Below, in pieces: positions 3,534-54,056 of a stretch of 64,000 bases of DNA. Origin of the DNA: Candidatus Campbellbacteria bacterium GW2011_OD1_34_28 (GTDB taxonomy: Bacteria; Patescibacteriota; Minisyncoccia; Phycocordibacterales; UBA12079); NCBI GenBank assembly GCA_001029775.1, contig CP011215.1:490303-554302 (forward strand), read 5' to 3'. Positions within the stretch are counted from its first letter, which is position 1. The number at the start of each line of letters is the position of its first letter. Under the pieces are notes generated by a model. That model ran no database searches and had not been told where the DNA came from. It saw only the letters and a program-made list of their open reading frames with translations. The translations under genes were made by a program, and so were the position numbers.

Positions 3534-3674
3534 TTTGTAAGTTTTATTTTAATGACGATATAATATCACATGATAATAAATAGTCACTTTTTAAATATTG
3601 CATTGAAAAAGTTAAGTTTTCTGTTAATATTCTAATTATTAAATATTATGGTCCCGTTTTTTCTAATAACTAAA

Positions 3675-3718
3675 ACCTGCCTGCCGTGTCGTTGCTTTTC
3701 TTTCAGAAAAGAGGCAGG
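3675..3718. repeat. 44-nt exact repeat, copy 1 (hairpin-forming; second copy at 46239..46282)
   Basis: ACCTGCCTGCCGTGTCGTTGCTTTTCTTTCAGAAAAGAGGCAGG identical at both loci; outer CCTGCC/GGCAGG stem and inner CTTTTC/GAAAAG stem. Confidence 0.8.
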
Positions 3719-3741
3719 ACTAATGGCTATAAACTTAATAC

Positions 3742-3813
3742 GGCCCTATCGTCTAACGGTTAGGACATCGCCTTCTCAAGGCGGGAATCAGAGTTCGATT
3801 CTCTGTAGGGTCA
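3742..3813 (+). tRNA. tRNA-Glu (anticodon CTC)
   Basis: hand-folded cloverleaf: acceptor GGCCCTA/TAGGGTC, anticodon loop TTCTCAA, T-loop TTCGATT; no encoded CCA. Confidence 0.85.
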
Positions 3814-3827
3814 CAAATCGCAAAAAA

Positions 3828-3864: not shown

Positions 3865-4028
3865 GAAAAGCAAACTGCTTTGCTTTTCGGCGATTTGTGA
3901 AGCCGGAGGCATAATTTTTCGAGCATCACGAGAAAAATAGCCGAGGCGAGGTCGACAAGTACTTAGATATTTTAGAACCCGAAGGGTTTTTAAATATTTA
4001 GTAACTTGTGACCACACAGATTTAGTCA
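3865..4028 (+). repeat. tRNA 3'-flank structured repeat element (Glu-CTC copy)
   Basis: GCAAACTGCTTTGC hairpin, GATTTGTGA (inverted copy of tRNA 3' end/trailer), core GAAGCCGGAGGC, variable hairpin, ACTTAGATATTTT...AAATATTTAGT hairpin, terminal TTGTGACCACACAGA; very similar to 44340..44565. Confidence 0.6.
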
Positions 4029-20425: not shown

Positions 20426-20506
20426 TTGAAATTATTTAATAAATTTGGTACTATTATGCTCAAATCAATTTTGACTTTTGATTTTTAACTTTTAAATTTC
20501 TATAAT

Positions 20507-20640
20507 GCCGAGGTGGCGAATTGGATTAAAAACAAACTGCTTTGTTTTTAATCCGGTTCTGAGCGAAGCGAAGAAATTTCCGTTATCGAGTGAAGCGAGA
20601 TAGGAAATAGGTGGAAGACGCACTAGCCTCTGGTTAAATG
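20507..20640 (+). pseudogene. disrupted tRNA-Leu copy with repeat-module insertion
   Basis: starts GCCGAGGTGGCGAATTGG like the real tRNA-Leu; then AAACAAACTGCTTTGTTT hairpin plus GAGCGAAGCGAAG/GTGAAGCGAG insert; resumes AGACGCACTAGCCT. Confidence 0.55.
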
Positions 20641-20659
20641 AAGCAGGATTGAAAAATAG

Positions 20660-20741
20660 GTAATATAATGCCGAGGTGGCGAAATTGGTAGACGCACTAG
20701 CCTTAGGAGCTAGCGGGGCAACCCATGGAGGTTCAAGTCCT
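20660..20741 (+). tRNA. tRNA-Leu (anticodon TAG), class II
   Basis: acceptor GCCGAGG/CCTCGGC, anticodon loop CTTAGGA, long variable arm, T-loop TTCAAGT. Confidence 0.85.
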
Positions 20742-20746
20742 CTCCT

Positions 20747-20786
20747 CGGCACAAAAACCAGACCTGAAAGCGACAGCTTTCAGGTC
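20747..20786 (+). terminator. intrinsic terminator
   Basis: CCAGACCTGAAAGC...GCTTTCAGGTCTTTGG + TTTTTG. Confidence 0.65.
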
Positions 20787-20790
20787 TTTG

Positions 20791-20966
20791 GTTTTTGTAG
20801 CCAGAGGAGAGGACTTGAACGGCGGAGGCGGTATACAAGACGAGCGAAGCGAGGGCTTGTCGCCGAGCCGCGTCCAGCAGTACTTAGGCTTTCGGAATCC
20901 GTAGCGAAGCGAAGGATGAGCGAAAGACTTAGTAACTGCGGGACAAGTCCTAACTTTTTAGCACAA
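20791..20966 (+). repeat. tRNA 3'-flank structured repeat element (Leu-TAG copy)
   Basis: GAGGAGAGGACTTGAAC (inverted copy of tRNA-Leu 3' end), core GAACGGCGGAGGCGG, hairpin with GAGCGAAGCGAGG, arm GCCGAGCCGCGTCCAGCAGTACTTAGGC ... AGACTTAGTAACTGCGGGAC, degenerate terminal CAAGTCCT. Confidence 0.6.
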
Positions 20967-20974
20967 AAACTTAG

Positions 20975-21010
20975 ACCCAGAAGCACCAGCTTCTGGGTCT
21001 TTGGTTTTTG
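20975..21010 (+). terminator. intrinsic terminator
   Basis: CCCAGAAGC-ACCA-GCTTCTGGG + TCTTTGGTTTTTG. Confidence 0.6.
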
Positions 21011-21087
21011 TAGTCACAAAACATTTGCTAAATCATTAATTTGTGAAATAATTATAATAATTAAAAATTAATTTAATTCAAAAAAAA

Positions 21088-26644: not shown

Positions 26645-26844
26645 TTGCGGAGGGTACGAGATTCGGCGCCAGTTCTAAATAAAATTTTCGTCCTGCAGAC
26701 TTAATTTTATTAAGAACTCGCTGCCCCCGCTCACTCGTGTTCGTCGCTTCGCTCCTCCATACTCGCTCGGTTCGAATCTCTTCCCCTCGGTGTAACGACA
26801 CAAAACAAAAACAGTGCATTGGTACTGTTTTTGTTTTGGTCGTG
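26645..26844 (-). repeat. tRNA 3'-flank structured repeat element (Ser-GGA copy)
   Basis: minus strand: terminator, GAGGGGAAGAGATTCGAAC (inverted tRNA-Ser 3' end), CGAGCGAG...GGAGCGAAGCGACG core, hairpin GCGAGTTCTTAATAAAATT/AATTTTATTTAGAACTGGCGC, terminal direct repeat CGAATCTCGTACCCTCCGCA. Confidence 0.6.
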
Positions 26845-26929
26845 CGGAGGGTACGAGATTCGAACTCGTGAAGGCTTTCACCTTGCCGCCTTTCCAAGAC
26901 GGTGCACTCGACCGCTATGCGAACCCTCC
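26845..26929 (-). tRNA. tRNA-Ser (anticodon GGA), class II
   Basis: acceptor GGAGGGT/ACCCTCC, anticodon loop TTGGAAA, long variable arm, T-loop TTCGAAT. Confidence 0.85.
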
Positions 26930-31764: not shown

Positions 31765-32313
31765 CTACTCTACGATTTGTAACTTAGGCCATTTCGAAAG
31801 CCATTGTTTTTTGTTTACTCGATTTATAAAATAATCACGCCCATCTCCAAAATTGGGGGTCATTCTTAGTTTAAGAGAAAATAAATCATCTAAACCGTGA
31901 GGAGCTATTATTTTTAAAGAATCGTCTGGCAACATTACAACTCCAATAGCTGTCGCTGTTTCTGGCCAATGTGTGATAGCATCTGTCGACGAAATATAAT
32001 CAGCCCCCTGATTGTTTATTTTCCCCATTCTTGCTTGATTGGTAACAGACCAATCAGCTTCTAATTTTTCTGAAAGAATCCTTTCGTATTTTTTTTCTGT
32101 CTCTTCTGATAAGTCATTTGGATCAAAATATATAACATCAATATCTGTCATATGTGGTTTGTTTTTAAAATTATGTAATGCATCCCAAACAGGGTTACGG
32201 ACAAATCCAGCTCCGATCAACCAATCAGGAAGATTTAATGTGCGAACAGTTCTTAAGATATCCATTCTCCAAGGATCGTTTTTTATTATATTGACGATAA
32301 AATCTTCGTTCAT
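31765..32313 (-). CDS. nucleotidyltransferase-family protein
   Basis: WLIGAGFVRNPVWDALH motif. Confidence 0.5.
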   Translation of the reverse strand: MNEDFIVNIIKNDPWRMDILRTVRTLNLPDWLIGAGFVRNPVWDALHNFKNKPHMTDIDVIYFDPNDLSEETEKKYERILSEKLEADWSVTNQARMGKINNQGADYISSTDAITHWPETATAIGVVMLPDDSLKIIAPHGLDDLFSLKLRMTPNFGDGRDYFINRVNKKQWLSKWPKLQIVE

Positions 32314-32470: not shown

Positions 32471-32549
32471 TATATACAAAACACCTAGAATTTTTGTTAA
32501 TTTTGTAATATAATTCAAGATATTTTAAGTTTTTAACTTTTGATATTTG

Positions 32550-32621
32550 GGCGTAGTGGCGAAGTGGAAACGCTGTGGTCTGCAAAACCACCATGCGCCG
32601 GTTCGATTCCGGCCTACGCCT
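32550..32621 (+). tRNA. tRNA-Cys (anticodon GCA)
   Basis: acceptor GGCGTAG/CTACGCC, anticodon loop CTGCAAA, T-loop TTCGATT. Confidence 0.8.
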
Positions 32622-32627
32622 CAAAAT

Positions 32628-32709
32628 GCCTGGGTGGCGGAATTGGTATACGCGCACGACTTAAAATCGTGTCTCGCAAGAGATGCGGGTTCGACTCCCG
32701 CCCTAGGCA
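32628..32709 (+). tRNA. tRNA-Leu (anticodon TAA), class II
   Basis: acceptor GCCTGGG/CCTAGGC, anticodon loop CTTAAAA, long variable arm, T-loop TTCGACT. Confidence 0.85.
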
Positions 32710-32748
32710 CATTGAAATTTTTTGAAATTTCAATACAATAGTGTATTA

Positions 32749-32992
32749 TCCGCTCGTAGCTCAGCTGGATGAGAAGCGTTGAAGCTTCGAATCCGAGCGA
32801 AGCGAGGTGGAAGAGTATTCCTTTGAAATGTAAGAGTCGGATGCTAATACACTTAGCATGGACTTCAGAGGTTTTACACAAAAGTAAAAGTAGAGATATC
32901 CGCTCGTAGCTCAGCTTCTGCCAAAGGCAGACAGGGTCCGAGCAACAATCATTGAGACAGACAAGTCTGTAAAATCATCATGGATTTAGTAT
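32749..32992 (+). pseudogene. two truncated 5' copies of tRNA-Lys each followed by unrelated structured sequence
   Basis: TCCGCTCGTAGCTCAGCT(GG) occurs at 32749, 32899 and 32991; only the third continues into a full tRNA; copy 1 is followed by CTTCGAATCCGAGCGAAGCGAGG. Confidence 0.55.
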
Positions 32993-33065
32993 CCGCTCGT
33001 AGCTCAGCTGGTAGAGCATCCGACTCTTAATCGGCAGGTCGAAGGTTCGATCCCTTCCGAGCGGA
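32993..33065 (+). tRNA. tRNA-Lys (anticodon CTT)
   Basis: acceptor CCGCTCG/CGAGCGG, D-arm GCTCAGCTGGTAGAGC, anticodon loop CTCTTAA, T-loop TTCGATC. Confidence 0.8.
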
Positions 33066-33157
33066 CAAGTAGACCCGAAGGAGGGTAAACGAATTATTAG
33101 ATAATTTTATATTTCTCGTTTTGAATATATTTCAATTTTGAGATTTAAATTTTTAAC

Positions 33158-33307
33158 ATGTCACAAGATCAATTGATAAAACTGGCTTGTCAGAGTTGTA
33201 AAAGAATCAATTACTGGAGCAGAAAAAATAAAAAACTGGTTCAAAAAAAGATTGAATTGAAGAAAAGATGTAAATGGTGTGATAAGCAAACAGTTCACAA
33301 AGAAGTA
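33158..33307 (+). CDS. rpmG: 50S ribosomal protein L33
   Basis: 49-aa ORF absent from the ORF track: MSQDQLIKLACQSCKRINYWSRKNKKLVQKKIELKKRCKWCDKQTVHKK with two CxxC pairs. Confidence 0.7.
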
Positions 33308-33325
33308 AAAAAATAATTTCAAAAT

Positions 33326-33355
33326 TTAGTCGATACTTTATAAACTTTTAACTTT
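33326..33355 (-). repeat. short TTTATAAAGT-type repeat, reverse copy of 55137..55160
   Basis: rc GTTAAAAGTTTATAAAGT matches 55140..55160. Confidence 0.45.
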
Positions 33356-33374
33356 ATAAACTTTCGACTAATTT

Positions 33375-33447
33375 GGGCCTATAGTTTCAATTGGTAAAAC
33401 AGTGGTCTCCAAAACCATCGTTCGAGGTTCGAGTCCTCGTGGGCCCG
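33375..33447 (+). tRNA. tRNA-Trp (anticodon CCA)
   Basis: acceptor GGGCCTA/TGGGCCC, anticodon loop CTCCAAA, T-loop TTCGAGT. Confidence 0.85.
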
Positions 33448-33681
33448 CAAAAAGAAGACCCGCAAGGGTTTTTCTTTTTGTTGGGTCCACGAACAAAGCA
33501 ATCTAAATTGCTTTGTGTAGGACGAGAACGGCGGAGCGGTTTACAATTTTAGTAAAATTTTCCAACAAAGAAAATCTTACTAAAATTGTCGCGAGCCGCG
33601 TCCAGCGATACTTAGACTTTTTGAAACACGAAGTGTTTCAAAAAGACTTAGTAATCGCGGGACAGTCCTCGTGGGCCCGCA
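33448..33681 (+). repeat. tRNA 3'-flank structured repeat element (Trp copy)
   Basis: terminator hairpin, GTAGGACGAGAACGGCGGAGCGG core, variable hairpin, arm GCGAGCCGCGTCCAGCGATACTTAGAC + long hairpin TTTTTGAAACACGAAGTGTTTCAAAAAG + AGACTTAGTAATCGCGGGAC, direct repeat AGTCCTCGTGGGCCCGCA of the tRNA-Trp 3' end. Confidence 0.65.
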
Positions 33682-33683
33682 AT

Positions 33684-33718
33684 TTAAAAACTCTCCACAA
33701 AAGTGGAGAGTTTTTAAA
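33684..33718. terminator. bidirectional terminator
   Basis: AAAAACTCTCCAC-AAAA-GTGGAGAGTTTTT. Confidence 0.7.
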
Positions 33719-33720
33719 TT

Positions 33721-34047
33721 CTAGATCTTATGAGATATTTCATCAATACGTTGTCTATTTTTTTCACCTCTGTCAATTTCAAAATCAAAGAAGGGAATCC
33801 TTTTCATTCTTACCTTTGGTTTGATGAATTCTTTGAAGTCTCTTCTTTTTCTTTTTAAAAAATTAATTACAGATTCTTCACTTGTTTCAGGATAAACGGT
33901 AACAAAAATAGTGGCTCTTTTAAAGTCTTTTGAAACACTGGCATCGGTTACAGTTATTAGGGAAGTATAGTTTGATTCTTCCTGTAAAAATTGAGCCGCT
34001 TGATTTCTTATTAGTTCTTTTACTTTGTCCTGTCTTAAATCAGTCAT
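33721..34047 (-). CDS. rbfA: ribosome-binding factor A
   Basis: KH-like RbfA fold, RVQELIRNQ-type N-terminus, C-terminal basic tail. Confidence 0.8.
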   Translation of the reverse strand: MTDLRQDKVKELIRNQAAQFLQEESNYTSLITVTDASVSKDFKRATIFVTVYPETSEESVINFLKRKRRDFKEFIKPKVRMKRIPFFDFEIDRGEKNRQRIDEISHKI

Positions 34048-42051: not shown

Positions 42052-42080
42052 TAAAAAACCCTCCTTCTTGGAGGGTTTTT
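42052..42080. terminator. bidirectional terminator
   Basis: AAAAAACCCTCCTTCTTGGAGGGTTTTTA. Confidence 0.7.
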
Positions 42081-43290
42081 ATAATGCCAAATTTCCTTCT
42101 GCTCTGATCTTTCCCGTTTTGTTTGGTAGTAGAATCTTGTTATCTAAATATCTAAAATAACTCGCAATTCCTATCATCACGGCATTGTCAGTAGAGTGTT
42201 TTGCATCGGGTATCAAAATATTAATACTCAATTCTTTTTCCAATTTTTTAAATTCTTTTCGTATTTTTTTATTTGCGGTTACACCACCTCCCAAAATCAA
42301 TGTCTTTATATCATTTTTTGCGATAGCTTTTTTTGTTTTTAAAAGTAGTACATCTACAACTGCATCTTCAAATTCTGCACAAATTTCTTTTTTTATTTCG
42401 GGCGTCACTTTTTTAATATTTTTGACGGTATACAAAACAGCCGTTTTTAATCCGGAAAAAGAAAAATCAAAGTCGTTTGTATGAAGCATTGGACGAGGTA
42501 GAGTAAAGTTTTTAGTTTTTAGTTTTAAGTTTTTAGAGAATTCTTCGGAAAGTTTTGATATTTCAGGACCGCCTGGGTAGGGGAGGCCGAGCATTCTTGC
42601 TACTTTGTCATAAGCTTCACCGACAGCATCATCTCTGGTTTGACCGATCAATTTATAATCCATCCAATCCTTAATCAGCACTAACTCTGTATGACCTCCA
42701 CTTATCAATAAACCAAGAGCAGGAAACTCAACTCCTTTATACTTGCTACTTGTTACTTTTGACTTGAGGAGCGAAGCGACGAGGTGTCCTTCCATATGAT
42801 TAACAGGAATAAAAGGTTTGTCCCACGCCAGTGCCAAAGCTTTTGCAAAATTTATTCCTGTCCAAAGAGCCGGTTCCAACCCTGGTCCTTGTGTCACAGC
42901 GATTGCATCAATTTTGGGAATTTTGTGTGTTTTAACAAATTCTAACAACGGTTCGGCTATCTCAATTTCTCTTTCTAGTATTTTATGTATCTTATTTGTT
43001 GTTTGTTTGGAAATTGGAAATTGGAAATTGAAAATTTTATTTTTGGAATTGCTTACGGGATTTAATAGACCCCCTTTTTTTAATGTTGTTAAAAGAATCG
43101 GTAATAAATTCTTAGTGTGCTCCCTTTTTGCGAGAGCAGGGAAGACACCCCCATACTCTTTGTGGATATTTATTTGAGAAATAATAGTATCAGCAATAAT
43201 CTTGAACTGAGGTTTTTTTAATCCTCCTTTTGCTTCAATTATGCTAATTGCTGTTTCATCGCAACTTGTTTCTATTGCTAATATCTTCAT
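42079..43290 (-). CDS. tsaD: tRNA N6-adenosine threonylcarbamoyltransferase TsaD (Kae1/Gcp) with ~50-aa insertion
   Basis: MKILAIETSCDETA, HMEGH and GGVAAN-type motifs; insertion carries tandem GGAAATT heptamers (43010..43050). Confidence 0.8.
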   Translation of the reverse strand: MKILAIETSCDETAISIIEAKGGLKKPQFKIIADTIISQINIHKEYGGVFPALAKREHTKNLLPILLTTLKKGGLLNPVSNSKNKIFNFQFPISKQTTNKIHKILEREIEIAEPLLEFVKTHKIPKIDAIAVTQGPGLEPALWTGINFAKALALAWDKPFIPVNHMEGHLVASLLKSKVTSSKYKGVEFPALGLLISGGHTELVLIKDWMDYKLIGQTRDDAVGEAYDKVARMLGLPYPGGPEISKLSEEFSKNLKLKTKNFTLPRPMLHTNDFDFSFSGLKTAVLYTVKNIKKVTPEIKKEICAEFEDAVVDVLLLKTKKAIAKNDIKTLILGGGVTANKKIRKEFKKLEKELSINILIPDAKHSTDNAVMIGIASYFRYLDNKILLPNKTGKIRAEGNLAL

Positions 43291-44339: not shown

Positions 44340-44565
44340 ATTTATAATCTAGAGGATTCTTATTTTGCTTGTTTAGGAATGCTTCGCATACTAAATCTGT
44401 GTGGACACAAATCACTAAATATTTTTTTCGCCCTTTGGGCTCAAAAATATCTAAGTGTTTGTCGTCCTCGGCTCGCGGTTTTTGTCTCTTTGTGAGAGAC
44501 AAAAACATTGCTCCGCCTTCACAAAGCTAAAAAAGCAAAGCAGTTTGCTTTTTCTTAACGCTTTG
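44340..44565 (-). repeat. tRNA 3'-flank structured repeat element (Glu-TTC copy)
   Basis: minus strand: GCAAACTGCTTTGC terminator, CTTTGTGAAGGCGGAGC core, hairpin GTTTTTGTCTCTC/GAGAGACAAAAAC, CGCGAGCCGAGGACGAC...ACTTAGATATTTTTG...AAAAATATTTAGT, terminal TTTGTGTCCACACAGA; close to the Glu-CTC copy. Confidence 0.6.
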
Positions 44566-44637
44566 TGACCCCACAGAGAATTGAACTCTGGTTAACAGAT
44601 TGAAAACCTGCTGTCCTAACCACTAGACGATGGGGCC
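44566..44637 (-). tRNA. tRNA-Glu (anticodon TTC)
   Basis: acceptor GGCCCCA/TGGGGTC, anticodon loop TTTTCAA, T-loop TTCAATT. Confidence 0.8.
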
Positions 44638-46217: not shown

Positions 46218-46238
46218 AGCTGCTAGCTTGTAGCCAAT
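46218..46238 (+). promoter_or_regulatory. AGCTNNT heptamer triplet
   Basis: AGCTGCT AGCTTGT AGCCAAT directly preceding the 44-nt repeat. Confidence 0.3.
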
Positions 46239-46282
46239 ACCTGCCTGCCGTGTCGTTGCTTTTCTTTCAGAAAAGAGGCAGG
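46239..46282. repeat. 44-nt exact repeat, copy 2
   Basis: identical to 3675..3718. Confidence 0.8.
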
Positions 46283-46534
46283 GTTGATAGTGGTAATCAA
46301 AATGAGTTTACAGTTTACAGCAAAGACGGAAGAATTTTGGCAAAGCCAAAATTCTTCCGCACTTGCTACTTGATACTAGCTACTTTATACTTGGTTCAGT
46401 GTATTGGGCAAAAGTGTGCTGTTACCATCACGGCCAAAACTCTCCAGCGCGCATCTCTTTTATTTGCCTTTTTACACAAAACCCGCCATTCGGCGGGTTT
46501 TTTTACTTGCTACTTATTACTCAGCACTTTTTAC

Positions 46535-53738: not shown

Positions 53739-53810
53739 GCTCTCATAGTTAAATGGATATAACGACTCCGTCCTAAGGAGTAATTCTAGGTTCGATTCCT
53801 GGTGAGAGCA
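53739..53810 (+). tRNA. tRNA-Arg (anticodon CCT)
   Basis: acceptor GCTCTCA/TGAGAGC, anticodon loop GTCCTAA, T-loop TTCGATT. Confidence 0.85.
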
Positions 53811-54056
53811 CAAAATAAAAACAGGTGTAGCGAAAGCTCCGCCTGTTTTTATTTTGTGTTCTCACAGAAAGCAAACTGCTTTGCTTTCGTCAGGAATCGA
53901 ACGGTGGAGCATGTCGCACGCAAGTTATTTTCTCCCACAAAGAGAAAATAACGAGTACGACAGCGAACCGCGTCCAGCGATACTTGGGATTTTTTGAAAC
54001 ACGAAGTGTTTTGAAAAAGACTTAGTAATCGCGGGACGATTCCTGGTGAGAGCACA
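53811..54056 (+). repeat. tRNA 3'-flank structured repeat element (Arg copy; best-preserved)
   Basis: GCAAACTGCTTTGC hairpin; GTGTTCTCAC..TCAGGAATCGAAC = rc of tRNA 3' half; core GAACGGTGGAGC; variable hairpin; CGAACCGCGTCCAGCGATACTTGGG + long hairpin + AGACTTAGTAATCGCGGGAC; terminal direct repeat CGATTCCTGGTGAGAGCACA. Confidence 0.7.

Follow-up and report, generated by a model that had tools for sequence, protein, structure and literature searches.

An intact and uninterrupted tRNA-Trp gene, whose CCA end is not encoded, is located in the window (i.e., the whole stretch of 64 kb of DNA that was analysed) and is directly followed by a folded element, the parts of which are reported in Table 1 together with the other copies disclosed in the same window. 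The 3' end of the gene is duplicated by this element, as had been claimed in an earlier note on this DNA: the 64-kb window contains two, and only two, exact copies of the 18-mer AGTCCTCGTGGGCCCGCA, at 33432-33449 and 33664-33681, in both cases on the + strand. The first copy had been placed at 33430..33449; the copy itself stands, while its start has to be shifted to 33432, where the exact repeat begins. No further match with up to two mismatches was found in the 64-kb window, and none was retrieved from 100 dinucleotide shuffles, the number expected by chance being none.

The first copy of the repeat (S1) runs from the T-loop A58 to the discriminator G73 of tRNA-Trp, followed by CA; the stretch that pairs with the downstream arm A in the minimum-energy fold begins at T54 (33428). 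S1 is followed by a hairpin (hp1) made up of an A-tract, ACCC-GCAA-GGGT, and a U-tract, which represents the tip of a long inverted repeat S1-hp1-A. The outer half of arm A is the antisense of tRNA positions 63-72 (the 3' strand of the acceptor and the end of the T-stem), and the inner half that of the T-loop/T-stem (positions ~53-62), the inner half also supplying the 5' strand of helix P1b. The small hairpin inserted between the two halves keeps a constant spacing of ~9 nt to the core; about one half of the family members possess it, among them the tRNA-Arg copy. The three-way-junction core is composed of GAACGGCGGAG, P2 (33529-33598; GGA/GA internal loop, variable hairpin), C33599, and P3 (GUCC-A-GCGAUACUUAG...CUUAGUAAUCGC-G-GGAC). 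The second copy of the repeat (S2) corresponds to tRNA positions 58-73 plus CA and acts as the 3' strand in both the P1b and the P1a helix; behind it lies hp2, which is used jointly with the convergent rbfA gene (33721-34047, - strand).

Each internal feature listed in the earlier note (core, hairpin, arm, and long hairpin) was located in the sequence, namely GAACGGCGGAGCGG at 33526-33539, the hairpin ACAATTTTAGTAA...TTACTAAAATTGT, corresponding to P2, at 33543-33589, GCGAGCCGCGTCCAGCGATACTTAGAC at 33591-33617, and the long hairpin P3 at 33600-33663, which is common to the Trp and tRNA-Arg copies. The hairpin at 33450-33481 had been overlooked, and so had the tRNA-antisense segment 33483-33492/33519-33529, split by 33493-33516. 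The strand carrying the Trp element folds at -93.6 kcal/mol (z = -12.2 versus shuffles), and the T-loop nucleotides of the repeat are fully paired with arm A in the folds; when DNA parameters are used, the two strands of this copy give -74.3 and -72.3 kcal/mol, values that do not discriminate between them.

Table 1. Position of the parts of the tRNA-Trp locus and of the other copies of the element, in window coordinates.
Feature	Position	Strand	Evidence
tRNA-Trp(CCA)	33375..33448	+	ARAGORN 33375-33448; Rfam 33375-33447, 57.9 bits
S1, first 18-nt repeat copy	33432..33449	+	Exact match
hp1, terminator-like hairpin	33450..33481	+	Terminator scan match 33454-33473; folds
Arm A, outer half, GGGTCCACGA	33483..33492	+	Sequence, folds
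Optional small hairpin inside arm A, ACAAAGCAAT-CTAA-ATTGCTTTGT	33493..33516	+	Fold
Arm A, inner half, AGGACGA + GAAC	33519..33529	+	Alignments, P1b covariation
Three-way-junction core	33526..33663	+	Covariance-model match 33517-33671, 85.9 bits, E = 1.9e-22
S2, second 18-nt repeat copy	33664..33681	+	Exact match, fold
hp2, bidirectional terminator-like hairpin, AAAAACTCTCCAC-AAAA-GTGGAGAGTTTTT	33682..33719	+	Sequence
Copy after tRNA-Glu(CTC) (3742-3814)	3893..4021	+	Covariance model, 35.1 bits, E = 1.4e-7
Copy after tRNA-Leu(TAG) (20670-20752)	20753..20965	+	Covariance model, 106 bits
Copy after tRNA-Ser(GGA) (26844-26929, -)	26647..26843	-	Covariance model 26656-26782, 27.9 bits
Copy after tRNA-Glu(TTC) (44565-44637, -)	44394..44529	-	Covariance model, 41.8 bits, E = 1.6e-9
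Copy after tRNA-Arg(CCT) (53739-53811)	53812..54056	+	Covariance model, 102.7 bits

The Trp element belongs to an undescribed family of folded, non-coding elements located after tRNA genes in Patescibacteria, in agreement with its previous assignment to a family of tRNA-flank elements. The use of a covariance model derived from 51 homologues disclosed six copies in the window, downstream of 6 of its 11 tRNAs and each directly 3' of a tRNA on the same strand, and well over a hundred further matches in Patescibacteria genome and metagenome loci. The copies behind the two tRNA-Glu genes lack the long S2, that of tRNA-Glu(CTC) being divergent. The Leu(TAG) copy harbors hp1, an arm A with one bulged A and no hairpin insert, the core, and a degenerate S2 (CAAGTCCTaactttttaGCACA), and a second copy of hp1, 76% identical, is located behind it (20966-21016). 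S2 is an exact 19-nt repeat in the Ser(GGA) copy (26647-26665) and an exact 20-nt repeat in the Arg(CCT) one (54037-54056). The genes found downstream of the window elements (LemA/DUF2207, a kinase-like gene, a methyltransferase, and the convergent rbfA) are unrelated to the amino acid of the respective tRNA. The duplicated 3' end is retained in the relatives of the window (loci L107-L109, L271, and L253; the truncated locus L110 stops at the tRNA), and the same sequence was recovered from independent assemblies, so that the assembly artefact contemplated in the earlier note can be discarded.

An antisense copy of the 3' end of the tRNA within 130 nt downstream was adopted as the signature of the element. 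In about 100 Patescibacteria loci, such a copy of its own 3' end lies just downstream of 95/180 tRNAs, versus 1/180 in the control; in two sets of testable tRNAs, the proportion was 55/98 and 40/87, and the element was always immediately downstream and on the tRNA strand. The elements are ~180-230 nt long and share the architecture S1-hp1-A-core-S2 in all six window copies and in ~100 loci. S1, hp1, and A form a single inverted repeat of 35-45 bp, in which A is the reverse complement of tRNA positions ~54-73 plus the trailer; S2 is a direct copy of the tRNA from the T-loop C56 onward, which varies in length between 7 nt and more than 70 nt and closes a conserved core of 70-150 nt. The end point of the antisense arm is constant (position 53/54) in ~95 cases; arm A always ends with TCGAA and S2 always begins with CGAxTCC, both being universal T-loop sequences. 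Within this scheme, the arms are matched to at least 27 different tRNA species, and several unrelated-looking core families share the same flank architecture. The sequences of P2 and P3 are lineage-specific and common to different tRNAs of one genome (as an example, Trp and Arg), and hp1 has been wholly replaced between the window and L253, remaining a perfect palindrome in each. In the core structure, 92% of the cells are paired, with 197 double-change cells versus 70 in shuffles, and P2, P3, and P1b covary strongly, the divergent subfamily included. The elements are GC-rich islands (0.42-0.56) within a genome of 34% GC. Some of them are embedded in tight tRNA operons and must therefore be transcribed.

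The long duplication does not define the family, since in ~21/56 members the direct copy is reduced to the 7-12 nt closing the core; the antisense arm of members with a shortened S2 is still complementary to the tRNA, and the cores and A arms of truncated-S2 copies are as intact as those of perfect-S2 copies. The identity between S2 and S1 is bimodal, with ~29/56 members showing at least 17/20 identical positions and ~21/56 no more than 12/20. S2 terminates at the mature 3' end of the tRNA and shares with it a lineage-specific change (G69 vs A69) that the pairing with A does not require. Mismatches are biased towards G-T (51, vs 20 A-C), and the S1:A and hp1 arms are almost wholly Watson-Crick (1140 pairs vs 37 G-T pairs). 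The changes accumulated by S2 (33 C>T plus A>G vs 13 G>A plus T>C) show an excess close to that predicted by base composition, because S is C-rich. Concerning the loops, 70/150 triloops are GNA, mostly C(GNA)G, and the motif T[GA]GC-GNA-GC[GA]A recurs at several hairpin tips; GNRA accounts for only 20/165 tetraloops, and tandem G-A motifs are present along with these loops. The GC-rich hairpin and U-tract of a plain intrinsic terminator are provided by hp1 alone, and the 200 nt beyond it (A, core, and S2) are not explained by a terminator.

The elements are gained and lost as exact units. Over 511 nt of flank, the loci L261 and L277 show 100% identity, and they differ by exactly one unit of 188 nt, spanning from C56 to the end of the core. 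The tRNA-Cys and tRNA-Leu(TAA) genes, 5 nt apart in the window, are separated by an element in L041, L104, L239, L258, and others, and the tRNA-Trp site is occupied in the lineage of the window, harbors another core in L272, and lacks an element in L277. In some cases (L019, L031, L069, and L277), the elements are arranged in tandem arrays; in other arrays, cargo genes are located between the elements, i.e., an unknown ORF as well as radical SAM and CYTH genes together in L099, a GNAT gene in L093, and a DUF4116 gene in L094. The last S copy of L099 is the most decayed one, and in some copies duplicated trailers and terminators lie behind S2.

No counterpart of the element was found in Rfam or in the literature searched. 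A search of Rfam 15 at the gathering score, performed with the window and seven loci covering core families A-D, returned only tRNAs, and in permissive searches (window and Trp, Leu, and Lys regions) the matches overlapping elements or tRNA flanks remained far below that score; a full-text literature search retrieved no description of such an element, but only the tRNA group I introns and the TIGR-Tas systems considered below. A Pfam scan of ORFs from the window (50), from cargo or neighbouring positions (19), and from the regions downstream of the elements (128) disclosed no enriched family. No linked recombinase, transposase, or reverse transcriptase was found beside the elements or in the cargo arrays; a tyrosine-recombinase motif scan of all loci detected only generic XerC/D-like genes, in 2 loci and 2-3 kb away, and no integrase adjoins any of more than 150 copies, nor was an integrase-bearing parent element seen. 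Two pattern scans of viral contigs yielded 0 and 120 chance matches, none with the upstream core motif; neither a free, viral, or plasmid form nor a true copy among viral contigs was found. Self-cleaving ribozymes were also considered and rejected, the junction strands (GAA, C, none) being unlike those of hammerhead, twister, and HDV-like ribozymes in a by-eye comparison and Rfam being silent; the same applies to retron ncRNA, IS110 bridge RNA, IscB/TnpB guide RNA, and box C/D guides, for which the defining protein is absent or RNA features are missing.

The explanation that we tentatively prefer, while assigning it somewhat less than an even chance, is that the element might be a DNA-level module for insertion/recombination, folding as a single strand and anchored on tRNA 3' ends, like the attP of CTX phage or the attC of integrons. 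Its working form would be the folded top strand (the tRNA-sense strand), in which the S:A pairing would mimic the double-stranded 3' end of a tRNA gene, as in CTX-phage attP(+) and integron attC. The unit comprising the C56-to-3'-end stretch, hp1, A, and the core would enter by site-specific recombination, through a recombinase acting in trans on folded single-stranded DNA; the element would supply the new tRNA 3' end (S1), and the old end would be displaced downstream as S2, free to decay. Arm A might stay complementary to the tRNA because close hairpin arms are re-templated, in a quasi-palindrome correction by which the selected tRNA arm would continually rewrite A. Repeated events would give rise to tandem arrays, and the same sites might capture gene cassettes.

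This proposal is supported by the exact-unit gain and loss, the occupied and empty sites, the arrays with cargo, and the shared flanks; by S2 ending at the tRNA 3' end, its bimodal identity, and the G-T bias; and by the near-perfect arms and the GNA-loop hairpins, which are typical of stable DNA hairpins. Among the mechanisms known to us, only folded-single-strand integration (CTX phage) leads to the order sense, hairpin, antisense, payload, sense. Besides, hp1 looks like an efficient terminator upstream of A in the AT-rich genome of the window, which argues against a routine transcription of the element. On the other side stand the lack of any linked recombinase, transposase, or reverse transcriptase, and of a free, viral, or plasmid form among the sequences searched; the retargeting to at least 27 tRNA species, which would need the rewriting of A and S by a mechanism that the proposal does not supply; the equal intactness of truncated-S2 copies; and the unavoidable transcription of operon-internal elements. 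The same tRNAs (Val-TAC, Pro-TGG, Cys, and Gly-GCC) are occupied across distant Patescibacteria lineages with their cores intact, suggesting a long-term useful retention more than a decaying parasite.

The main rival, which is quite possible even though we consider it improbable on balance, is that the element might work as a co-transcribed structured RNA, that is, a functional 3' external transcribed spacer. Upon read-through past hp1, arm A would invade the acceptor and T stems and capture the 3' half of the tRNA, and the core and S2 would compete for A by strand displacement; the whole would act as a bistable switch, or else as a fail-safe substrate of RNase III, setting the release of mature tRNA. 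Alternatively, the long-S2 copies might give rise to a stable RNA with a tRNA end, trimmed by RNases P and Z. In the predicted minimum-energy fold of an RNA comprising tRNA-Trp, hp1, and A (-66 kcal/mol), arm A does pair with the tRNA 3' half and the cloverleaf is destroyed. An RNA function is also consistent with the invariable location of the elements directly downstream and on the strand of the tRNA, with their transcription within tight operons, with the strong covariation of the helices, and with the GC-rich composition. The complementarity of A to the tRNA is kept where S2 has been lost, and the mean dG is -31.8 for A:S1 versus -23.2 for A:S2. The insert of arm A occupies the point from which a tRNA body would project, and A:S2 might thus imitate the acceptor/T-stem stack; S2 follows the G69/A69 change, and tandem G-A motifs and some GNRA loops occur. 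The same reading is at odds with a canonical terminator preceding arm A in AT-rich genomes and with 70 GNA triloops versus 20 GNRA tetraloops, an excess that is unusual for functional RNAs. It does not explain the duplicated trailers and terminators after S2, the exact-unit changes in copy number, the cargo arrays, or the shared flanks of unrelated cores; moreover, downstream genes bear no link to the amino acid, and no protein partner is known.

It is conceivable, even if rather doubtful, that the element represents a device without a described counterpart, combining a conserved three-way-junction scaffold with a 20-nt arm matched automatically to the 3' end of the adjacent tRNA, and is either a guide-based system of target-templated insertion or a genome-wide RNA switch acting on tRNA 3' halves. 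The former would write an antisense and a sense copy of whichever tRNA it adjoins; in the latter, the capture and release of tRNA 3' halves would control the tRNA supply in minimal cells.

An unlikely origin is a passive one, in which the element would be a functionless by-product of replication template switching at the terminator hairpin and T arm, and the core a hitch-hiking repeat homogenised by gene conversion via the flanking universal T-loop sequences. Tandem-inversion-duplication events give sense, antisense, and sense copies, and the triplication with an inverted middle copy and hairpin junctions matches such an outcome. The near-perfect palindromic arms, which include non-functional trailers, the P2/P3 sequences common to Trp and Arg in one genome, and the invariant ends of A and beginnings of S2 also speak for a passive origin. 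However, about half of the sampled tRNA genes are occupied in streamlined genomes that are presumably subject to a strong deletion bias, and the fold of the core is kept by compensatory changes across deep lineages and subfamilies; in addition, the antisense end point is identical in ~95 independent cases, and random template switches would not bring repeatedly a structured core of 70-150 nt to one position.

Even less probable, to the point of being very unlikely, is that these elements are scars of classical double-stranded integrase islands or prophages inserted at tRNA 3' ends, of which attL and attR would have been left after the deletion of the island genes, the core corresponding to a conserved attP-arm region in a single mobile element widespread among Patescibacteria. 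In the T-loop class of tRNA integration sites, the repeats run from the T loop to the tRNA 3' end, just as they do here; cargo islands with partial tRNA copies are found in the same arrays, and the total of ~230 bp is similar to a phage attP. Nevertheless, a double-stranded attP needs neither a full antisense copy of its target nor covarying helices with a top-strand G-T bias, no integrase adjoins the more than 150 copies, no copy was found on viral contigs, and scars would not be expected to retain intact cores at one in two of the tRNAs sampled.

That ORF 33513-33824 (103 aa, TTG start) might be a real protein-coding gene, with incidental repeats, is hardly credible in spite of its open frame, and is refuted by the frameshifting 1-nt and 2-nt indels shown within its span by the orthologous element of L253 and by a covariation revealing that base pairing, not codons, is the conserved trait; the frame, already dismissed as an artefact in the earlier note, crosses the core, the repeat, and the terminator, then overlaps the convergent rbfA on the opposite strand, and has no counterpart in the other five window copies.

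Patescibacteria (CPR) make up a large bacterial branch with genomes of roughly one megabase, in which little room for junk DNA is expected; despite such tiny genomes, about half of the tRNA genes in ~100 loci bear a structured appendage of 180-230 nt. If this is a recombination module, it would represent a new tRNA-anchored route for gene capture and shuffling in Patescibacteria, as well as a new case of target recognition, in which a folded nucleic acid reproduces its target. Should it instead be an RNA, a new layer of control of tRNA maturation would be added, specific to organisms that lost many regulators. The covariance model and the downstream-antisense signature allow the annotation of the element in every Patescibacteria genome. 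The elements also yield spurious ORFs, such as 33513-33824.

Among known systems, anticodon-loop group I introns have been described in Patescibacteria tRNA (Nakagawa et al. 2026, PMC13011429); here, the tRNA is uninterrupted, its 3' end is duplicated, and there is no Intron_gpI match. TIGR-Tas systems are long arrays of ~36-nt dual-spacer units beside a Nop-domain Tas protein (PMC12045711), whereas the units analysed here are single or few, 180-230 nt long, and adjacent to tRNAs, with no Nop-domain family among the neighbouring-ORF families listed. Like functional tRNA 3' trailers, the element is non-coding, immediately follows the tRNA, would belong to the same transcript, and would be releasable by tRNA-processing enzymes; however, neither the E. 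coli leuZ 3'ETS sponge nor the plant tRNA-snoRNA genes (RNase Z) pair with their own tRNA or duplicate its 3' end, and trailer RNAs do not accompany one half of all tRNA genes. The A:S2 helix of long-S2 copies imitates the acceptor/T-stem stack and ends at the discriminator, as in tRNA-like RNAs (tmRNA, YrlA, and viral ones), and the specificity for one tRNA is reminiscent of T-box leaders; in contrast with both, the element has no T loop, anticodon-arm mimic, tag ORF, specifier, or antiterminator, and 40% of the copies are without the acceptor mimic. A T-box leader was rejected on the basis of the lack of an Rfam T-box match and of downstream genes unrelated to the amino acid, and a tmRNA or tRNA-like RNA on the basis of the lack of a tRNA-like domain according to ARAGORN or Rfam, the T-loop nucleotides being paired with A.

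Concerning mobile DNA, MITEs have terminal inverted repeats that are identical in kind in all copies and a short target-site duplication of fixed length; they differ from the element, whose ends vary with each tRNA and whose repeat is of variable length. IS200/IS605 minis and REP/RAYT sequences are likewise small, non-autonomous, hairpin-based, strand-specific, and active as single strands in intergenic regions downstream of genes, and IS608 reads its target through base pairing with the element DNA; however, their guides are of 4 nt instead of 20, they insert 3' of a target of 4-5 nt, they do not produce any target duplication (here, a repeat of 7 to >70 nt), they have no three-way-junction core, and they need a Y1 transposase, while no Y1 (HUH) transposase is among the top 25 families listed for the window ORFs or the neighbouring ORFs. 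The tRNA-targeting islands, CIMEs, and tycheposon-type arrays share with the element the insertion at tRNA 3' ends with restoration of the tRNA and direct repeats, the remnant arrays with partial tRNA copies, and the accessory-gene cargo. Unlike it, these islands, CIMEs, and arrays are kilobases long and act as double-stranded DNA, with a linked tyrosine integrase that was not found here, and are devoid of an antisense copy of the target and of a covarying structured core.

Integron attC sites are also imperfect inverted repeats that fold on one strand, are bulged or provided with extra hairpins, and have a distal structure that varies; structure prevails over sequence, and they form arrays behind cargo ORFs, beside a fixed attachment point, GNAT-type cargo included. 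Arrays of an ORF and a folded site with a single-strand bias were observed in L099, L093, and L094 (G-T to A-C ratio of 51:20). The RYYYAAC/GTTRRRY order of attC is reversed here, since the palindrome is GTTCGA (T loop)...TCGAAC and the outer ends are the tRNA acceptor; besides, the repeat consists of 20 nt of a tRNA end, cargo is missing from most units, it is the top strand that folds, and there is no intI, attI, or tyrosine recombinase next to the arrays.

The elements of the CTX type (IMEX) target dif, the chromosome dimer resolution site, through XerC/XerD, instead of the 3' end of a tRNA gene, and the body of CTX phage is replaced here by a geneless three-way junction of 70-150 nt, with arms fitting at least 27 tRNAs and no helper phage or recombinase found. 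Nonetheless, the order hybrid site, spacer, inverted site, body, hybrid site, which characterises the integrated single-strand elements exploiting Xer, such as CTX-phage attP(+), is the one observed here; tandem copies are likewise common to the two, as would be a folded strand mimicking the double-stranded target and a strand-specific function.

The earlier note had drawn attention to an exact 18-nt duplication of the tRNA-Trp 3' end, and this duplication proved to be real: the window contains two exact copies of AGTCCTCGTGGGCCCGCA, at 33432-33449 and at 33664-33681, with no further near match and no match in 100 shuffles. The first copy coincides with the 3' end of tRNA-Trp(CCA), a tRNA that is itself intact, and spans A58 of the T-loop to the discriminator plus CA. 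All the internal features that had been listed between the two copies are present in the sequence, and the interpretation given to the element is supported overall; a component that had been missed is arm A, antisense to the tRNA 3' end (S1), which forms with this end and the following hairpin (hp1) one continuous inverted repeat. Arm A paired with the second copy of the tRNA 3' end (S2) gives helix P1, which closes the core. The element strand folds at -93.6 kcal/mol, far more stably than shuffles (z = -12.2), and in the predicted minimum-energy RNA fold of tRNA-Trp, hp1 and A (-66.2 kcal/mol) the 3' half of the tRNA pairs with A, abolishing the acceptor and T arms. ORF 33513-33824 had been taken for an artefact, which is borne out by frameshifting indels in L253 (L-numbers denote other Patescibacteria loci) that exclude a protein-coding reading.

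Anatomy of the element following tRNA-Trp in the window
Feature	Position	Strand	Description
tRNA-Trp(CCA)	33375-33448 (ARAGORN), 33375-33447 (Rfam)	+	S1 = last ~20 nt
hp1	33450-33481	+	terminator-like hairpin
Arm A	33483-33492 and 33519-33529	+	reverse complement of tRNA positions ~53-72
Small hairpin splitting arm A	33493-33516	+	
Core, three-way junction	33526-33663	+	GAA, P2, single C, P3
P2 of the core			CGGC/GCCG, GGA/GA internal loop, variable hairpin
P3 of the core			GUCC-A-GC...GC-G-GGAC, long hairpin
S2	33664-33681	+	second 18-nt copy
Second terminator-like hairpin	3' of S2	+	common to the convergent rbfA gene

Repeat finding and alignment revealed that the same element follows tRNA-Leu(TAG) and tRNA-Arg(CCT), the Trp copy being one of a family. 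A covariance model (R1) detected the element six times in the window, downstream of 6 out of its 11 tRNAs (Glu-CTC, Leu-TAG, Ser-GGA, Trp, Glu-TTC and Arg-CCT). Scanning species-representative genomes for the core pattern yielded 106 loci, about half of which are true copies, all in MAGs of Patescibacteria (Saccharibacteria, Paceibacterota, Kaiser-, Nomura-, Campbell- and Peregrinibacteria), the remainder being chance matches in high-GC genomes that miss the 3' motif; a metagenome scan added 52 loci. At the other loci, a copy lies directly downstream of 55/98 and 40/87 testable tRNAs (two locus sets), always on the tRNA strand. Independently of any model, 95 of the 180 tRNAs are followed, within 15-130 nt downstream, by an exact antisense match (at least 9 nt) to the 3' end of the tRNA itself, against 1/180 in the equivalent upstream control; in 33 of these 95 the core belongs neither to family A nor to family B, with the same flanks and three-way topology. 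No Rfam family matched any of the elements, and a non-exhaustive literature search found no equivalent, an earlier description elsewhere being possible.

The consensus structure was assessed on an alignment of 51 copies, in which 92% of cells are paired and double-sided changes occupy 197 cells, against 70 ± 7 in shuffles; when the partners are slid by 1-3 columns, pairing falls to 32-41%. Textbook compensatory changes are found in P3 (GCGAU/AUCGC, GCAGU/ACUGC, GCUGC/GCAGC), and a divergent subfamily (the first elements of L093 and L099) keeps the fold with A-U for G-C in P2 and GGUC/GACC for GUCC/GGAC in P3. One constant feature is arm A, which pairs with an average of 17 out of the last 20 tRNA positions (1140 Watson-Crick and 37 G-T pairs) and always ends in TCGAA, opposite T54-A58. 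In S2 the constant part is limited to 7-9 nt (CGAxTCC) closing the core, and identity to the tRNA is bimodal (at least 17/20 in ~29/56 copies, at most 12/20 in ~21/56), with breakpoints dispersed across positions 62-70. Long S2 copies usually end at the discriminator or one base beyond, some (e.g., Leu, Arg, L059) extending into a copied trailer and hairpin. Since arm A remains fully complementary to the tRNA also where S2 is short, the exact duplication is frequent yet dispensable, the invariant feature being the tRNA-complementary arm. The mean dG is -31.8 for A:S1 versus -23.2 for A:S2.

Concerning the turnover of the element, L261 and L277 share 511 nt of identical flank, the difference between them being exactly one unit of 188 nt that starts at C56 and takes in hp1, A and core. 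tRNA-Cys and tRNA-Leu(TAA), 5 nt apart in the window, have an element between them in L041, L104, L239, L251, L258, L263, L270, L272 and L274. tRNA-Trp carries a family-A element within the window lineage (L107-L109, L271 and L253), a different core in L272 and no element in L277 and L261. Tandem arrays are common (L019, L031, L069). Three elements follow tRNA-Gln in L099, with an unknown 231-aa ORF and then a radical SAM gene and a CYTH gene as cargo between them. The cargo blocks all open with promoter-like sequences homologous to one another; decay is seen in the last S copy, the internal ones being perfect. Similar cargo arrays occur in L093 (GNAT) and L094 (DUF4116). No linked recombinase was found, no family being enriched among 128 ORFs downstream of elements, and viral contigs yielded no true copy.

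The cargo blocks of L099 (5150-5090 and 4250-4200, - strand) and L093 (5195-5240 and 6005-6090) have homologous starts, ...TTTAG(AG)CTATATTT..CAAC..., after which come a fragment resembling a T arm and a -10 element of TATAAT type; shared by different genomes at different tRNAs (Gln, His), this sequence represents a conserved left end of cargo cassettes. In L108 (3520-3575), downstream of the Trp element's S2, inverted strains retain part of a second element, absent from the window: a hairpin AAAAGTGCCTGCGCACTTTT, CGT, GAGGACGA and a degenerate core start GAAAAGAGCG, i.e., a tandem-copy remnant.

The reading given the highest weight, tentatively, is that of a DNA-level module inserted at tRNA 3' ends via a folded single strand. 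The inserted unit would comprise C56 to the 3' end, hp1, A and core, and in the folded strand S:A would imitate the double-stranded target. GNA occurs in 70 of 150 predicted triloops, mostly as C(GNA)G, and GNRA in only 20/165 tetraloops; the motif T[GA]GC-GNA-GC[GA]A, found repeatedly at hp1 and P3 tips, combines tandem sheared G-A pairs with a GNA mini-hairpin, and both of these are known hallmarks of unusually stable DNA hairpins. Moreover, hp1 is wholly different in the window and in L253 and a perfect palindrome in each, which suggests DNA-level copying of one arm from the other; in the AT-rich window genome it is also an apparently efficient terminator ahead of A. The architecture, covariation, strand bias, exact-unit polymorphism and arrays with cargo are matters of observation; we infer a recombinase, a single-stranded intermediate and the upkeep of arm A by quasi-palindrome correction.

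We give somewhat less credence to the main rival, in which the element would be co-transcribed and act as an RNA switch or as a tRNA-ended RNA. The elements lie within tight tRNA operons and therefore must be transcribed there; they are GC-rich islands, and arm A is, according to the predicted fold, thermodynamically capable of unzipping its own tRNA. The small hairpin in A is located at the would-be branch point of the tRNA body, so that A:S2 would imitate the acceptor/T-stem stack, and S2 tracks a lineage-specific tRNA-Trp change (G69/A69) which is not needed for pairing with the U in A. G-T mismatches number 51 against 20 A-C, and the top strand is required by both the DNA and the RNA readings. 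A passive by-product of template switching, which is improbable, and classical integrase scars, which are more unlikely still, each account for part of the data but leave the conserved fold and the antisense arm unexplained.

Other peculiarities were observed near tRNA genes. Upstream of tRNA-Lys(CTT) (gene start 32993), the region 32744-32992, with no Rfam match, contains two partial sense copies of its 5' end, CCGCTCGTAGCTCAGCTGG at 32750 and a second at 32900 with 2 mismatches, separated by structured sequence including GAGTCGGATGCT, antisense to tRNA-Lys positions ~23-34; the related strain L108 has one copy only. These look like a 5'-side counterpart of the 3' elements. Upstream of tRNA-Leu(TAG) (20470-20669), a promoter-like TTGACT...TATAAT precedes, in this order, a copy of positions 1-19 of tRNA-Leu, a hairpin-bearing insert of 95 nt (GGATTAAAAACAAA-CTGC-TTTGTTTTTAATCC; GCGAAGC motifs), positions 18-40 in degenerate form, another TATAAT and the real gene; the 5' half is duplicated here and interrupted at the D loop by the insert. 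In the groundwater assemblies L108 and L109, with identical rpmG, the block of tRNA-Cys, Leu, Lys, rpmG and tRNA-Trp with its element (window 32480-33726) has the opposite orientation with respect to its neighbours, rbfA/infB at one end and L21 at the other; short inverted repeats, CTAGAATTT / AAATTCTAG, are present at the two window breakpoints (~32486 and ~33716). A 73-nt repeat with a hairpin CCTGCC...GGCAGG (3667-3739 and 46231-46303, 82% identical) stops in one copy 2 nt before tRNA-Glu(CTC) and in the other precedes no detected tRNA; possible explanations are a promoter or leader common to both sites, or an RNA gene that escaped detection, e.g., an intron-containing tRNA. In a permissive Rfam search, tRNA-Leu(TAA) (32627-32709) scored 30.9 bits against skipping-rope RNA (gathering score 36.7), probably a cross-match, the tRNA having a long variable arm. 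Among the neighbours of the tRNA clusters are genes for an NTP_transf_6 nucleotidyltransferase (31765-32313, - strand), variably present among strains and missing from L108/L109, and TsaD (42079-43290, - strand); with the MYG1-type exonuclease, Dus and RNase III also encoded in the window, they are candidate tRNA/RNA-processing partners.

Among known systems, the parallels are the CTX-phage attP(+), whose integrated form has its parts in the same order, and the integron attC; the element is like CTX-type and integron-type sites in its logic. The element differs from CTX-type sites in the absence of dif; from integrons in the absence of attI and intI and in the wrong order of the core sites; and from tRNA-targeting islands in having an antisense arm and no integrase. 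IS200/IS605, REP and MITE failed as assignments, and so did T-box leader, tmRNA-like RNA, group I intron and TIGR array. Since it failed the defining tests of all the compared systems, the element was provisionally rated as lying outside the known kinds; the tRNA-Trp duplication leads to an undescribed feature of tRNA genes that is abundant and extends over the phylum.
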